The position numbers were made by a program, and so were the translations under genes. A DNA stretch of 64,000 bases from NCBI GenBank assembly GCA_000004695.1, contig CM000154.2, positions 4,192,001 through 4,256,000 on the forward strand, given 5' to 3'. Below are positions 39,123 to 46,132 of this stretch, in pieces; the stretch's first letter is position 1, and each line of letters starts with the position of its first letter. Under the pieces are notes generated by a model, which was given only the letters and a program-made list of their open reading frames with translations, was not told where the DNA came from and did no database searches. The DNA is from Dictyostelium discoideum (lineage: Eukaryota).

Positions 39123-39252
39123 CTATAAAATTTTAAAAAGGGTGAAGAGGGGGGTTGAAAAAAAAAAAAAAAAAAAAAATTAATTTTCCAGTTCCAATTT
39201 TTTCTTTTGGTTAATTAAAAAAGGTAAGATAATTATATATATATATACTTAC

Positions 39253-39962
39253 ATGCTATTGGCGAAAACGTAATCCTTAGCACATTGTGCAATATGGTTA
39301 ACGTCACAGTCGTTAAAGAAGATATTTGGTGATTTTCCACCAAGTTCTAATGTCACTGGTTTTAAATTACTCTTTGCTGCACCCTCCATAATTAATCTAC
39401 CAGTTATAGTTGAACCAGTGAATGAAATCTTATCGATATCCATATGATGTGATAATGCACTACCAACAGTTGCACCAAACCCATTTACTAAATTGAAAAC
39501 ACCAGGTGGGAAACCAGCTTCTTTAATTAACTCACAAAGATATAACGCAGTCAATGGGGTGAATTCAGATGGTTTAGCAACGATTGTGCAACCTGCAGCT
39601 AAAGCTGGTCCCAATTTCCAACATAATAACATACATGGATAATTCCAAGCAACAATTAAAGCAACTACACCAATTGGTTCATGTCTGGTAATTGATGTAT
39701 ATTCATTACTAATTGGAATGGTTTTACCTTGAATTTTATCAGCCCAACCACCGAAATAACGAAGAGTCTTTTCTGATTGTGTTATATCATATCCTTTTGA
39801 TGCTGTCAATGGTTTACCATTATCTAATGTTTCTAATTGTGCTAAATTATCTTTATGTTTTTCAATTAAATCTGCAAATTTTAATATAATTCTACCTCTA
39901 TCTTCAGATGTCATTTTACTCCATTCTCCATTTTCTAATGCTTCTCTTGCTGCTTTCACTGC
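39253..39962 (-). CDS. ALDH-A exon 2 (AVKAAREALENGEWSKMTSEDRG ... ELGGKSPNIFFNDCDVNHIAQCAKDYVFANS-M).
   Basis: Acceptor TTATAG ending at 39963. The exon ends ...AGC AT, and the donor GTAAGT at 39252-39247 contains the track ORF's stop. The ELGGKSP glutamate motif is present. Confidence 0.85.
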
Positions 39963-40731: not shown

Positions 40732-42069
40732 TTATTGTTGTTGAGCATGTAAAGTTTTATGAGCAATTGTAACAGCTTTAACAGATAAATAACCTTGAAT
40801 TGCATATTCAGATAAATCACGACCAAAACCGGATTGTTTGAAACCACCAAATGGAATTTGAGATTTTAAGATATTGAAACCATTTACCCAAACTGAACCA
40901 CTCTTTAATTTATTTGAAACATTTAATGCTAAACTAATATCTTTAGTCCAAACACCAGCTGCTAAACCATAGGTTGTGTCATTTGCTCTTTTAATTACTT
41001 CATCAACAGTTTTGAATGGTAAAATTACAACAACAGGACCAAAGATTTCTTCTTTACAAATTGTCATATCATCAGTGACATTGGTGAAAATAGTTGGCTG
41101 AATGAAATAACCAGCACCATCGGCATGATGATTATGAACTTCACCACCTAAATGACAAGTTGCACCTTCCTCTTTACCCTTTTGAATGTAACCTAAAACA
41201 CGATCATGTTGTTGTTTACTAACCAATGGACCTAAATGAGTTTCACTATCATATGGATCACCAACTTTTAATTGTTTAATCTTCTCTGTGAATATTGTCA
41301 AGAAAGCATCAAGAATACTCTCATGAACAAAGAATCTTGAAGCGGCACAGCATAGCTGCATACTATTTGCAAAAACGTAATTTTTTGCAGCATTGGCCAC
41401 ATATTCAATGTCGCAGTCACCAAAGATGATATTTGGAGATTTACCACCAAGTTCTAATGTCACCGGTTTCAAATTACTCTTTGCAGCAGCCTCCATAATT
41501 AATCTACCAACTCTAGTTGAACCGGTGAATGAAATCTTGTCAACATCCATATGATGTGATAATGCATCACCAACTACATCACCAACACCATTTACAATAT
41601 TAATTACACCAGGTGGGAAACCAGCCTCCTTAACCAATTCACAAAAGTATAAAGCAGTCAATGGGGTGAACTCAGATGGTTTAGCAACTATTGTACAACC
41701 TGCAGCTAAGGATGGTCCCAATTTCCAAGACAATAGTAACAATGGGAAATTCCAAGCAACGATTAATCCAACTACACCAATTGGTTCATGTTTGGTCATT
41801 GCAGTGAATTCACTACTAATTGGGATGGTTTTACCTTGAATTTTATCAGCCCAGCCACCGAAATAACGTAAAGCTCTAGCAGCTTCAGTAATATCAAAAC
41901 CACTTGATGCTGTCAATGGTTTACCATTATCCAATGTTTCTAAATCTGATAAATGCTCTCTATGTTGATCAACTAAATCTGCCAATTTCAATATTAATTT
42001 ACCTCTATCTTCTGCTGTCATTTTACCCCATGGTCCATTGTCTAATGCATTTCTTGCTGCTTTAACTGC
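40732..42069 (-). CDS. Aldehyde dehydrogenase paralog B, exon 2 (AVKAARNALDNGPWGKMTAEDRG ... to the end). It has no second intron.
   Basis: Track ORF at 40732..42021 extended upstream to the acceptor TTTATAG ending at 42070. Motifs are ELGGKSP and QLCCAASR. Confidence 0.85.
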   Translation of the reverse strand, partial: AVKAARNALDNGPWGKMTAEDRGKLILKLADLVDQHREHLSDLETLDNGKPLTASSGFDITEAARALRYFGGWADKIQGKTIPISSEFTAMTKHEPIGVVGLIVAWNFPLLLLSWKLGPSLAAGCTIVAKPSEFTPLTALYFCELVKEAGFPPGVINIVNGVGDVVGDALSHHMDVDKISFTGSTRVGRLIMEAAAKSNLKPVTLELGGKSPNIIFGDCDIEYVANAAKNYVFANSMQLCCAASRFFVHESILDAFLTIFTEKIKQLKVGDPYDSETHLGPLVSKQQHDRVLGYIQKGKEEGATCHLGGEVHNHHADGAGYFIQPTIFTNVTDDMTICKEEIFGPVVVILPFKTVDEVIKRANDTTYGLAAGVWTKDISLALNVSNKLKSGSVWVNGFNILKSQIPFGGFKQSGFGRDLSEYAIQGYLSVKAVTIAHKTLHAQQQ

Positions 42070-43460: not shown

Positions 43461-44795
43461 GCAGTAAAAGCAGCAAGAAATGCATTTGAAAATGGACCAT
43501 GGGGTACAACAATGTCATCAGAAGAAAGAGGTAGAATTATATTGAAATTGGCAAATTTAATTGAAAACCATAAAGAGAAACTTGCACAATTGGAAACATT
43601 GGATAATGGTAAATCAATTGTTTCAGCAAGGGAAGATATTGATTTTTGTGTTAGAGTAATTCGTTATTTCGGTGGTTGGGCTGATAAAATTCAAGGCAAA
43701 ACCATCCCAATTAGTAGTGAATTCACATCGATTACTAAACACGAGGCAATTGGTGTAGTTGCTTTAATTGTTGCTTGGAATTATCCAGTGATGTTGTTAT
43801 GTTGGAAATTGGGACCAGCTTTAGCTGCAGGTTGTACAATCGTTGCTAAATCATCTGAATTCACCCCATTGACTGCATTATATCTTTGTGAATTATTTAA
43901 AGAAGCTGGTTTCCCACCTGGTGTTTTCAATTTAGTCAATGGGTTTGGTGCAACTGTTGGTAATGCATTATCATATCATATGGATATCGATAAGATTTCA
44001 TTCACTGGTTCAACTATAACTGGTAGAAAAATTATGGAAGGTGCAGCAAAGAGTAACTTAAAACCAGTGACATTAGAACTTGGTGGTAAGTCTCCAAATA
44101 TCTTCTTTTCAGACTGCCAAATTGATCATTGTGTTGAGGCTGCTAAGGATTACGTATTCTCAAATAACAGTCAAAACTGTTGCTTCTCATCAAGATTCTT
44201 TGTTCATGAGAGTATCCATGACGCTTTCTTGGCATTATTCACAGAGAAGATTAAACAATTAAAAGTTGGTGATCCATATGAAGAATCCAACAATTTAGGC
44301 CCATTGGTTAGTAAACAACAACATGATCGTGTATTGGGTTACATTGAAAAAGGTAAGAGTGAAGGTGCAACTTGCCATTTAGGTGGTGTTAAACATCAAA
44401 TTGATGGTAAAGGTTATTTCGTTCAACCAACTATTTTCACCAATGTCACTGATGATATGACAATTTGTAAAGAAGAAATCTTTGGTCCTGTTGTCGTAAT
44501 TTTAAAATTCAAAACTGTTGATGAAGTAATTAAAAGAGCAAATAACACAACCTATGGTTTAGCAGCTGGTATTTGGACTAAAGATATCAGTTTAGCATTA
44601 AATGTTTCAAATAAATTAAAAGCTGGTTCAGTTTGGGTAAATAATTATGATAACTGTTTACCACAAGTACCATTCGGTGGTTTCAAACAATCTGGTATTG
44701 GTCGTGATTTATCTGAATATGCAATTCAAAGCTATTTATCTGTTAAAGCTGTTACAATTGCTCATAAAACTTTACATGCTCACCAACAACAATAA
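43461..44795 (+). CDS. ALDH-C exon 2 (AVKAARNAFENGPWGTTMSSEERG ... to the end).
   Basis: Acceptor TTTTTAATAG at 43451-43460. The frame is continuous with the track ORF at 43512..44795. Motifs are ELGGKSP and QNCCFSSR. Confidence 0.85.
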   Translation, partial: AVKAARNAFENGPWGTTMSSEERGRIILKLANLIENHKEKLAQLETLDNGKSIVSAREDIDFCVRVIRYFGGWADKIQGKTIPISSEFTSITKHEAIGVVALIVAWNYPVMLLCWKLGPALAAGCTIVAKSSEFTPLTALYLCELFKEAGFPPGVFNLVNGFGATVGNALSYHMDIDKISFTGSTITGRKIMEGAAKSNLKPVTLELGGKSPNIFFSDCQIDHCVEAAKDYVFSNNSQNCCFSSRFFVHESIHDAFLALFTEKIKQLKVGDPYEESNNLGPLVSKQQHDRVLGYIEKGKSEGATCHLGGVKHQIDGKGYFVQPTIFTNVTDDMTICKEEIFGPVVVILKFKTVDEVIKRANNTTYGLAAGIWTKDISLALNVSNKLKAGSVWVNNYDNCLPQVPFGGFKQSGIGRDLSEYAIQSYLSVKAVTIAHKTLHAHQQQ

Positions 44796-44849
44796 AATAA
44801 AAATAAAAATAAAATAAATTTAAAAATATATATATTTATTTATTTATTT

Positions 44850-45263
44850 TTAAATTAATGTTTTTTTTAAATATTTACTACCTTCTCTAATTGAAAGAAT
44901 TGATAAATTATTACGATTTAATTCAATAAATTCAAAAACTTTATTATGATGAGTTTTACTTAATTGTCTTAAACTCCAACCAATTGCTTTTCTAATAAAG
45001 AATTCTTTATTAAAATTATCATTTACCAATAATTTATTAATAAAATTAAATAGTAAATCAATATTAATTTGATCCTTTTTAAAAGTTAATTGAAATAATA
45101 AACAAATTCTACGATCCCAAAAACTATCACTTTCAATCCATTTATCTGTATATTCTTTTATTTGATCCGGATATTCTTTAAAATGTCCACCAATTAATTT
45201 AGATGAAATTATATCAATTGTATCCCAAAATGGTTCAGTTTGTGCAAATTTTTCATAAAGTTC
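44850..45263 (-). CDS. AlkD-like DNA alkylation repair glycosylase (HEAT-like repeat family), exon 3 (ELYEKFAQTEPFWDTIDII ... FFIRKAIGWSLRQLSKTHHNKVFEFIELNRNNLSILSIREGSKYLKKTLI).
   Basis: Acceptor AATAAG ending at 45264. Stop TAA at 44852-44850. FFIRKAIGWSLRQLSK matches the conserved AlkD-family helix. Confidence 0.65.
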   Translation of the reverse strand, partial: ELYEKFAQTEPFWDTIDIISSKLIGGHFKEYPDQIKEYTDKWIESDSFWDRRICLLFQLTFKKDQINIDLLFNFINKLLVNDNFNKEFFIRKAIGWSLRQLSKTHHNKVFEFIELNRNNLSILSIREGSKYLKKTLI

Positions 45264-45294
45264 CTTATTAATTTAAAAAAAATTGAAAAAATTA

Positions 45295-45358
45295 ATTTTA
45301 TATTTTATATTTTATATTTTTATATTTTTATATTTTTATATTTTATATTTTATATTTT
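45295..45358. repeat. (TATTTTA)n / (ATATTTT)n minisatellite inside intron 2 of the AlkD-like gene.
   Basis: Tandem 7-8 bp units, about 8 copies. Confidence 0.85.
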
Positions 45359-45364
45359 ACTTAC

Positions 45365-45643
45365 AATTCTTGATTCTGGTAATTTTATTTTTTTACAAGT
45401 TTGTTGCCATGCTGCTAATTCAATTGCAACATATTTAAATTCTCTCTCTGGTTGATTATAAATTGTTAATAAATCATCATCAGTATAATCTCTACCATTC
45501 TTTTCAATAAATGATTTCATTAATTCTTTTCTATCAGGTGATTGTAATCCTAAGAATGGGAATTGATCACGCATATATTTTTTCATTGCAATTGCTTTTT
45601 TTGAATCACTTTCATTTTTAAAATGTTTAATTAAATTTGATAC
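45365..45643 (-). CDS. AlkD-like gene exon 2 (VSNLIKHFKNESDSKKAIAMKKYMRDQFPFLGLQSPDRKELMKSFIEKNGRDYTDDDLLTIYNQPEREFKYVAIELAAWQQTCKKIKLPESRI).
   Basis: The KKYMRDQFPFLGLQSPDRKEL motif matches the Pfam DNA_alkylation family signature (mkkYmk..fpflGv..P.lR). Acceptor AAAAAG ending at 45644. Donor GTAAGT at 45364-45359. Confidence 0.65.
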
Positions 45644-45762
45644 CTTTTTAGTTTTTTAATTTTAGTTTGTTTTTTTTATTTTATTTTTAAAAAATGGAAT
45701 AAATAATAATTATTTTTATTTTTTTTTTTTTTTTTTTTTTTTTCATCAAAAAGGATACATAC

Positions 45763-45783
45763 ATATTTACTTGATTTTGACAT
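45763..45783 (-). CDS. AlkD-like gene exon 1, a micro-exon (MSKSSKY).
   Basis: ATG at 45783. The donor GTATGT at 45762-45757 and the phase-0 junction give the reading MSKSSKY|VSNLIKHF. The total is 237 aa, matching AlkD length. Confidence 0.45.
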
Positions 45784-46132
45784 ATTTTTATAAATTATAA
45801 ATAAAAAAAAAATAGTTGTGGTAGTGGAAATAATAATAGTAAACTCAAAAAAAAAAAAAAAAAAAAAAAAAAAATGTGAATAAAATTAAAAATAAAAATG
45901 AATAAAAAATCAAAATAAAAAAATCAAATTCCAAGAAATGTTATTTTAAAAATGTTTTATTTTTATTTTTTTTTTTTTTTATTTTTTATTTTTTTTTTTT
46001 TTTAGTAAAGGTGAAGTTCTGGTTTTACTGTTATTAATGATCGTTCAATTGTTTTTTTTTTTTTTGTTTTGTTTTTTTAATTTTTTTTGTTTTTTTTTTT
46101 TGTTTTAGTTGTTTTTTATTAATATGATTTGT

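Follow-up and report, generated by a model that had tools for sequence, protein, structure and literature searches.

The alkylpurine DNA glycosylase AlkD of Bacillus cereus is the closest solved relative of the gene considered here, DDB_G0290539 of Dictyostelium discoideum, which occupies positions 44850-45783 on the minus strand of a 64,000-nucleotide stretch of that genome (GCA_000004695.1, contig CM000154.2, positions 4,192,001 to 4,256,000; hereafter the window) and is referred to below as D. discoideum AlkD. The concave basic face of the HEAT-like superhelix of bacterial AlkD lies in the minor groove and bends the DNA while the damaged base is left stacked, and the three residues that carry out catalysis (Trp109, Asp113, and Trp187) make contact with the modified nucleotide (PMC8626424). 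Substitutions W109A, D113N, and R148A abolish activity and Y27A lowers it; R148, which pairs with the catalytic aspartate, is essential by mutagenesis (PMC1874660). AlkD is specific for the cationic lesions 3-methyladenine (3mA), 3-methylguanine (3mG), and 7-methylguanine (7mG) (PMC1874660), and also excises the bulky adenine adducts of yatakemycin, duocarmycin, and CC-1065 (PMC8626424). YtkR2 and C10R5, the self-resistance glycosylases of the yatakemycin and CC-1065 clusters, share its fold and its three catalytic residues (PMC8626424), and the HEAT-like repeat superfamily further includes AlkD2 (Streptococcus mutans, PDB 4X8Q) and AlkC (Pseudomonas fluorescens, PDB 5VI0). In eukaryotes, bacterial acquisition has already been proposed for the AlkD of bdelloid rotifers (Hecox-Lea & Mark Welch 2018, PMC6264785).

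Taken as a whole, the account that emerges for the amoeba gene—an AlkD-type enzyme of ancient bacterial origin, inherited vertically thereafter and acquiring its introns stepwise—is considered likely. Its first element, that the locus is the nuclear gene DDB_G0290539 and belongs to the AlkD-type HEAT-like-repeat family, is practically certain. The initial annotation of the window, made from the raw sequence, had proposed a three-exon gene with a 7-codon first micro-exon and two AT-rich introns, and these coordinates were reproduced exactly. The three exons (21 + 279 + 414 nt) are separated by two GT..AG introns, both in phase 0, and the 714-nt coding sequence (CDS) yields a product of 237 amino acids (aa) that agrees at every residue with XP_635637.1 (EAL62130.1; DDB_G0290539; UniProt Q54FY0) of D. 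discoideum AX4. The gene is thus already in the reference annotation, which the raw-sequence model re-derives. Its parts are as follows:

45763-45783, minus strand: exon 1, the 21-nt micro-exon; ATG plus 6 codons (MSKSSKY), then the GTATGT donor; 19% GC.
45644-45762, minus strand: intron 1; 119 nt, phase 0, GTATGT..AAAAAG, 10% GC, with a long A-run on the gene strand.
45365-45643, minus strand: exon 2; 93 codons (V8-I100) carrying N-terminal HEAT-like repeats, Y30 (AlkD Y27), and the KKYMRDQFPFLGLQSPDRKEL motif.
45264-45364, minus strand: intron 2; 101 nt, phase 0, GTAAGT..AATAAG, 4% GC.
45295-45359, unstranded: minisatellite inside intron 2; (ATTTTAT)n on the plus strand, 8.9 copies, Tandem Repeats Finder (TRF) score 103.
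44850-45263, minus strand: exon 3; 137 codons plus TAA (stop 44850-44852), carrying W113, D117, and W196 (AlkD W109, D113, and W187), R152 (AlkD R148), and the FFIRKAIGWSLRQLSK helix.

The two main exons have a GC content of 20-25%, and the window ranges from 12 to 37% GC per kb, being extremely AT-rich as is usual in Dictyostelium. Both helix motifs singled out by the initial annotation are present in the 237-aa product, where KKYMRDQFPFLGLQSPDRKEL spans residues 28-48 and FFIRKAIGWSLRQLSK spans residues 188-203.

Assignment to the AlkD family was borne out by a hidden Markov model search with PF08713 (DNA_alkylation), which matched the spliced protein across positions 2-213 of the 213-position profile and scored 194 bits (cut-off, 21; E = 3.3e-57); no NCBIfam model matched the product. 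The best-matching solved structures are chains of B. cereus AlkD (PDB 3BVS, 3JX7, 5CL3, and 5UUF), which belong to the same length class (237 aa) and share 38.7% identity over residues 7-234 (E = 1.1e-38), followed by EF3068 of Enterococcus faecalis. Alignment with the AlkD chain places AlkD Y27, M28, W109, and D110 at Y30, M31, W113, and D114 of the amoeba protein, and D113, R148, L155, and W187 at D117, R152, L159, and W196, all identical. Six of these (Y30, W113, D114, D117, R152, and W196) are invariant both in a 72-sequence alignment of bacterial and animal homologues and in seven dictyostelids. Unlike its bacterial counterpart, the amoeba gene sits in a eukaryotic nuclear genome, has AT-rich exons, and is interrupted by two introns, and its protein contains a four-residue insertion (the LLVNDNFN region) before the FFIRKAIGW helix, found only in D. 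discoideum and D. citrinum.

Structure prediction with AlphaFold from the 72-sequence alignment gave a confident, all-helical model (predicted local distance difference test, 95.9; predicted template modelling score, 0.91). In a Foldseek search, the top PDB matches of this predicted structure are complexes of B. cereus AlkD with DNA, with template modelling (TM) scores of 0.85-0.90 and root-mean-square deviations of 2.0-2.3 A, consistent with the same six-repeat HEAT-like alpha-superhelix, and its ten significant PDB matches are all AlkD or EF3068. The model fits the other subtypes of the superfamily poorly, with a TM score of 0.52 and 15% identity for AlkD2 and a TM score of about 0.5 for AlkC, which argues that the amoeba protein belongs to neither. 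YtkR2 and C10R5 are only 19-25% identical to AlkD and reside in biosynthetic clusters, whereas the amoeba gene is AlkD-proper and is not so clustered.

These comparisons bear on whether the protein might be a catalytically inactive HEAT-like-repeat relative of the AlkD2, AlkF, or AlkG type, with a DNA-binding or other role. The fold has known inactive paralogues, the fold search does return AlkD2 of S. mutans, and the dictyostelid copies are known at the level of sequence; moreover, K156 of AlkD is replaced by a threonine (T160) in D. discoideum. Such an identity is nonetheless very unlikely given the conservation of the three catalytic residues together with the counterparts of R148 and Y27, the far closer fit of the predicted model to AlkD than to AlkD2, the strength of the sequence match to AlkD, and a ratio of non-synonymous to synonymous substitution rates (dN/dS) of 0.18. 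Every sequence- and structure-level defining feature of an active AlkD that was checked is present in the protein sequence or its predicted model, and D. discoideum AlkD is, on its sequence, probably catalytically competent. Two observations count against a working nuclear glycosylase: the change at K156, the sole difference among the residues checked, and the absence of a recognisable nuclear localisation signal (NLS) in the D. discoideum protein, which has neither the KKKRRKV-type extension of metazoan AlkDs nor the S/T/K-rich extension of group-2 dictyostelids. At approximately 28 kDa, as estimated from its 237 residues, the protein could enter the nucleus passively.

Given the conservation of all these residues, the most likely mode of action of the amoeba enzyme is that of AlkD. 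By homology to the B. cereus protein, the concave basic face of its alpha-superhelix would bind the minor groove and bend the duplex, and W113, D117, and W196 would contact the deoxyribose of the lesion without base flipping, with R152 (AlkD R148) tuning the catalytic aspartate. Together, these residues would favour hydrolytic cleavage of the N-glycosidic bond in cationic N3- and N7-alkylpurines such as 3mA and 7mG, and possibly of bulky minor-groove adenine adducts. The resulting abasic site would be passed to the apurinic/apyrimidinic endonucleases of the amoeba and the remainder of base excision repair. The residues equivalent to Y27, M28, W109, D110, L155, and W187, which form the shelf that contacts such adducts, are conserved, and this is the basis for a more speculative suggestion. 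A bacterivorous lineage of soil amoebae might have kept an ancient bacterial AlkD, from a time preceding the dictyostelid radiation, mainly as a defence against bulky minor-groove alkylators of the yatakemycin, CC-1065, and duocarmycin class made by prey or neighbouring bacteria, and less for housekeeping repair of methyl lesions; the enzyme would possibly be the only alkylpurine glycosylase of the amoeba. As a whole, this suggestion is regarded as rather improbable.

The initial annotation held the family to be overwhelmingly prokaryotic, and the gene to be an HGT candidate on that ground. The distribution of the gene shows this argument to be too simple. A single-sequence search returned only D. 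citrinum, D. purpureum, and Polysphondylium violaceum before reaching bacteria, which pointed to a recent transfer restricted to group 4. This reading was overturned when a profile search recovered Tieghemostelium lacteum (group 3), Acytostelium subglobosum (group 2), and one EukProt entry, and when an exhaustive hmmsearch over 1.84 billion cluster representatives added two further sequences (289 and 283 bits), namely Cavenderia fasciculata XP_004355281.1 (group 1) and Heterostelium album (group 2). With these, orthologues are known from C. fasciculata, H. album, A. subglobosum, T. lacteum, P. violaceum, D. purpureum, D. citrinum, and the EukProt entry, and the gene is present in all four major dictyostelid groups; a recent or species-restricted gain is therefore not what the data show. 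All dictyostelid sequences score at least 283 bits in the exhaustive search, whereas the next best match reaches 229 bits, where a continuum of mostly unlabelled matches begins.

Beyond the Dictyostelia, PF08713 is not rare in eukaryotes, and is far less bound to prokaryotes than the initial annotation assumed. A published AlkD tree contains protist sequences from Acanthamoeba, C. fasciculata, Naegleria, Paramecium, Tetrahymena, Capsaspora, and Salpingoeca, and also takes in Chlorella, Micromonas, and a dozen animals (Hecox-Lea & Mark Welch 2018, PMC6264785). A search started from a sponge protein brought up a large clade of metazoans, spanning sponges, cnidarians, molluscs, annelids, amphioxus, and a hemichordate. 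Like the bdelloid rotifer protein, these belong to the same AlkD subfamily of PF08713 and are encoded in nuclear genomes; unlike the dictyostelid proteins, to which they are approximately 34% identical, the metazoan AlkDs carry KKKRRKV-type N-terminal extensions and fall in a separate region of the tree. In the exhaustive search, no eukaryote outside the Dictyostelia was identified above 229 bits; the named matches at or below that score are bacterial or metazoan, the highest named metazoan standing at approximately 202 bits. Neither Acanthamoeba nor Entamoeba is among the 120 best named matches of either the dictyostelid or the sponge query.

The origin of the gene was examined in three neighbour-joining analyses with simple distances and bootstrap, comprising 70, 486, and 93 taxa, the last being fully labelled through the use of GTDB genomes. 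Dictyostelid monophyly was recovered in 79% of replicates with 70 taxa, in 69/100 with 486 taxa, and in 234/300 (78%) with 93 taxa. Within the clade, the 70-taxon tree places C. fasciculata at the base, followed by A. subglobosum with H. album and T. lacteum with the EukProt entry, and then P. violaceum, D. purpureum, and finally D. discoideum with D. citrinum. This branching matches the accepted species order and thus indicates vertical inheritance within the Dictyostelia.

Outside the clade, the same analyses point towards bacteria. A grouping of dictyostelids with metazoans appeared in 0/200 replicates with 70 taxa, in 0/100 with 486 taxa (on a loose definition), and in two of the 234 dictyostelid-monophyly replicates with 93 taxa. 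The 486-taxon tree places the dictyostelids inside a 126-member group with Bacteroidota-labelled sequences, while the named metazoans all lie in a separate split of 69 members; where the immediate sister group has named members, these are Flavobacteriales or Bacteroidota. Across the 234 replicates, the sister group was mainly Bacteroidota in 143 (61%), Bacillota in 89 (38%), and metazoan in the remaining two. Mean identities run in the same direction, at 39.7% between dictyostelids and bacteria and 34.0% between dictyostelids and metazoans, compared with 39.5% between metazoans and bacteria. It is on this placement, and no longer on the rarity of the family in eukaryotes, that the candidacy of the gene for HGT now stands. 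A single transfer from a Bacteroidota- or Bacillota-like bacterium into the stem of the Dictyostelia, ancient and separate from the metazoan copies, is the best reading of these sequence comparisons and is judged moderately probable.

Several properties of the data weigh against this reading. The exact sister node has 7% support in the 70-taxon tree, the alignments comprise approximately 220 columns at around 40% identity, and the trees were built by neighbour joining only. The bacterial samples were picked by similarity to the query, which favours bacterial neighbours, and the homologues of Acanthamoeba, Entamoeba, Naegleria, ciliates, algae, Capsaspora, and choanoflagellates were left out of the trees. 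Fast evolution of both eukaryotic lineages could also produce a low dictyostelid–metazoan identity despite a shared eukaryotic ancestor. The weakly supported deep nodes and the use of neighbour joining only lend some weight to vertical inheritance, in which AlkD would have been present in an early eukaryotic or Amorphea ancestor and lost many times, the dictyostelid copy being its amoebozoan descendant. Such a history would accommodate the patchy occurrence of PF08713 in Acanthamoeba, C. fasciculata, Capsaspora, Salpingoeca, Naegleria, ciliates, green algae, and animals, including the large metazoan clade, as well as its universality in the Dictyostelia; an Entamoeba homologue has also been reported. 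It sits poorly with the near absence of dictyostelid–metazoan groupings in the replicates, with the greater closeness of dictyostelids to bacteria than to metazoans, with the lack of any identified non-dictyostelid eukaryote above 229 bits, and with the absence of Acanthamoeba from the 120 best named matches of either query. The ancestral dictyostelid gene, moreover, appears to have been intronless. Vertical inheritance from such an ancestor is accordingly considered unlikely, if with an appreciable share of probability.

Under the preferred reading of an ancient transfer, a gene from a Bacteroidota- or Bacillota-like bacterium would have entered the dictyostelid stem lineage separately from the metazoan AlkD clade, its composition then coming to match that of the host genome. 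AlkD was in place, without introns, in the last common dictyostelid ancestor and has descended vertically from it. Intron 1 and the micro-exon would have arisen in the group-4 ancestor, intron 2 in the lineage of D. discoideum and D. citrinum, and the minisatellite in D. discoideum.

That the nearest non-dictyostelid relatives are bacterial also raises the matter of bacterial contamination or an assembly artefact, to which next to no probability is given. The gene carries two spliceosomal introns and the extreme AT content of its host, and its GC content equals the local genomic GC in each dictyostelid species compared. Ordinary eukaryotic genes flank the AlkD loci, whose contigs measure 50 kb to several Mb, and at least nine dictyostelid assemblies contain the gene, with the topology of the species tree. 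Contamination is ruled out by these features, and the gene is truly integrated in a eukaryotic genome. It is also under constraint: between D. discoideum and D. citrinum, the protein is 92% and the CDS 94% identical, compared with 63%–68% for the introns, and the dN/dS of 0.18 for this pair indicates purifying selection.

The two introns fit the Dictyostelium spliceosomal type, being GT..AG, short, and of 4-10% GC, with the reading frame restored on splicing and their positions kept in relatives; the AT-richness that the initial annotation ascribed to them (10% and 4% GC) is confirmed. In D. citrinum, the first exon is the same 21 nt and the exon lengths (21/279/414 nt) equal those of D. discoideum. 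The D. purpureum gene has a 27-nt first exon, and its only intron (64 nt) lies at the same SKY|V junction and in the same phase. Intron 1 is therefore matched in position by introns of 120 nt in D. citrinum and 64 nt in D. purpureum, and intron 2 by one of 123 nt (63% identical) in D. citrinum; intron 2 was not seen in the D. purpureum gene or in any more distant dictyostelid compared. No introns occur in the genes of P. violaceum, T. lacteum, A. subglobosum, and C. fasciculata, which are single open reading frames (ORFs), and the AlkD ORF of H. album is likewise uninterrupted. The dictyostelid orthologues form a single clade that branches by the species tree and shares all catalytic residues, yet they differ in lacking introns outside group 4 and in having different genomic neighbours in every genus.

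The micro-exon model is supported by several features of the sequence. Residues V8-A26, which align with the first helix of AlkD, begin exon 2, and the exon 2 region encoding them has no in-frame ATG and is preceded by an in-frame stop five codons upstream. The junctions in D. purpureum and D. citrinum agree with the model, as does the S-x-Y-V motif, which is colinear between this gene and the uninterrupted ones of other dictyostelids. From the gene structures compared, the most economical history starts with an intronless ancestor; the group-4 ancestor would then have gained intron 1, creating the micro-exon, and the lineage of D. discoideum and D. citrinum would later have gained intron 2. 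An intronless ancestral gene is consistent with a bacterial origin without proving it.

The (TATTTTA)n minisatellite that the initial annotation placed in one intron is borne out by TRF, which finds 8.9 copies of a 7-nt unit with 96% matches in intron 2. This repeat is absent from intron 2 of D. citrinum, which indicates a species-level expansion in D. discoideum; judged by its sequence, the repeat gives no sign of function. Further runs recorded by TRF comprise a 31-nt T run on the plus strand within intron 1 (45713-45743; 93% matches) and, approximately 65 bp upstream of the AlkD start codon, a 28-nt A run (45847-45874). Very long homopolymer runs are typical of Dictyostelium non-coding DNA.

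The novelty implied by the initial annotation does not hold, since the gene is annotated and a D. discoideum homologue of AlkD is already known, having been in print since 2006-2007, from the first description of the AlkD family onwards: Dalhus 2007 cites Alseth 2006 for AlkD homologues in Entamoeba histolytica and D. discoideum. No paper naming DDB_G0290539 was found in the searchable literature, and the same was true for PF08713; nor was a published HGT claim for DDB_G0290539 found in the literature searched. A 2026 preprint that restates the HGT domain list of Eichinger 2005 does not name the AlkD domain, in a list that may be incomplete, and a review of glycosylase evolution (PMC8307549) makes no mention of AlkD. 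The finding is therefore real but ordinary, with little import beyond sound annotation. What has been added is a timing—a gene already in the dictyostelid ancestor is not a recent transfer—together with the stepwise gain from no intron to one and then two, with a 7-codon micro-exon, in a gene of probably bacterial derivation, and a wider eukaryotic spread of the family than had been assumed. The intron record offers a tidy, small example of the domestication of a transferred gene. Dictyostelium is, in addition, a tractable model for DNA repair, and a knockout could provide the first in vivo test of a eukaryotic AlkD.

The AlkD gene adjoins an aldehyde dehydrogenase (ALDH) gene on the plus strand, and the initial annotation had put it in a convergent position beside an ALDH cluster. 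Pfam (PF00171) confirms three ALDH ORFs within approximately 6 kb, an arrangement also found in D. citrinum and one that looks like a local cluster of paralogues:

39249-39959, minus strand: ALDH ORF.
40732-42021, minus strand: ALDH ORF.
43512-44795, plus strand: ALDH ORF; last large exon of the adjoining ALDH gene (PF00171, 540 bits), which is context and lies outside the AlkD system.
44796-44849: 54-bp spacer between the convergent stop codons of ALDH (plus strand) and AlkD (minus strand), with AATAAA-type motifs on both strands.

The convergent proximity stands as first described, with the correction that the stop codons are 54 bp apart rather than 55. It is inferred that the 3′ untranslated regions of the two genes overlap or abut across these 54 bp, which could yield antisense transcript overlap. 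The initial annotation had further raised the idea of a functional neighbourhood for aldehyde detoxification and alkylation repair, to which the closeness of the AlkD gene to three ALDH paralogues, and the same layout in D. citrinum, would lend themselves. D. citrinum is, however, so close (92% protein identity) that shared gene order says little, and it is the only species to share the adjacency. No ALDH neighbour occurs at the AlkD loci of D. purpureum, P. violaceum, T. lacteum, A. subglobosum, C. fasciculata, or H. album, all six of which have unrelated neighbours, and the convergent orientation rules out a shared promoter. A functional link, which is highly improbable, was rejected on synteny.

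Among the orthologues, the N termini vary. The proteins of A. subglobosum and the EukProt entry (P0126 and P0128) share an S/T/K-rich extension, approximately 70-80 aa long and opening with M..TRSKAKA; that of the H. album ORF is shorter, at approximately 40 aa, and starts MITRSKS. Extensions of this type, of approximately 40-80 aa, mark the group-2 copies and the EukProt entry. Metazoan AlkDs have extensions of the MSKRRA..KKKRRKV type, and the proteins of D. discoideum, P. violaceum, and T. lacteum have no extension. By their sequence, these extensions look like independently added targeting sequences. In H. album, the AlkD domain was met within an annotated 1079-aa "prespore-specific protein" (XP_020427335.1; GL290995.1, L090 3001-8309), where it lies between DUF829 matches. 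A stand-alone intronless AlkD ORF beginning MITRSKS is present at L090 4814-5617, and the annotated model is probably a merger of the AlkD gene with DUF829 exons.

Some candidate eukaryotic homologues were set aside. P0004 and P0005 both lie on bacterial contigs. P0233 and P0259 were considered as possible sequences of other amoebozoans on account of their long basic, NLS-like N termini, and were rejected when P0259 was found on a compact, prokaryote-style contig beside a non-ribosomal peptide synthetase (NRPS). The P0259 protein (L088 5001-6077; Logan contig SRR12908336_15298), to which P0233 is related, is an AlkD homologue that bears at its N terminus an NLS-like, K/S-rich extension of 129 aa. 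Its gene directly follows the NRPS (Condensation/AMP-binding/PP-binding), a Peptidase_M3 gene, and a phosphopantetheinyl transferase gene, and the overlapping gene ends make the contig look prokaryotic. A self-resistance glycosylase belonging to a natural-product cluster is one possible role for P0259; an effector directed at the nucleus of a host is another.

AlkD homologues approximately 35% identical to that of D. discoideum were also encountered in a Babeliales metagenome-assembled genome (OY970310.1; L046) and repeatedly in Obscuribacter/Obscuribacterales of the Melainabacteria (L033, L035, L036, L044, and L052). The Babeliales (Dependentiae) are an amoeba-associated group; in the trees, neither their homologue nor those of Obscuribacter are sister to the dictyostelids. 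Finally, metagenomic sequences include two kinds of AlkD fusion: P0279, P0367, and P0368, of approximately 400-412 aa, join an N-terminal PurN-like glycinamide ribonucleotide formyltransferase to AlkD, and P0283 and P0369, of 423 aa, join a P-loop domain (GLPGSGKST) to AlkD.

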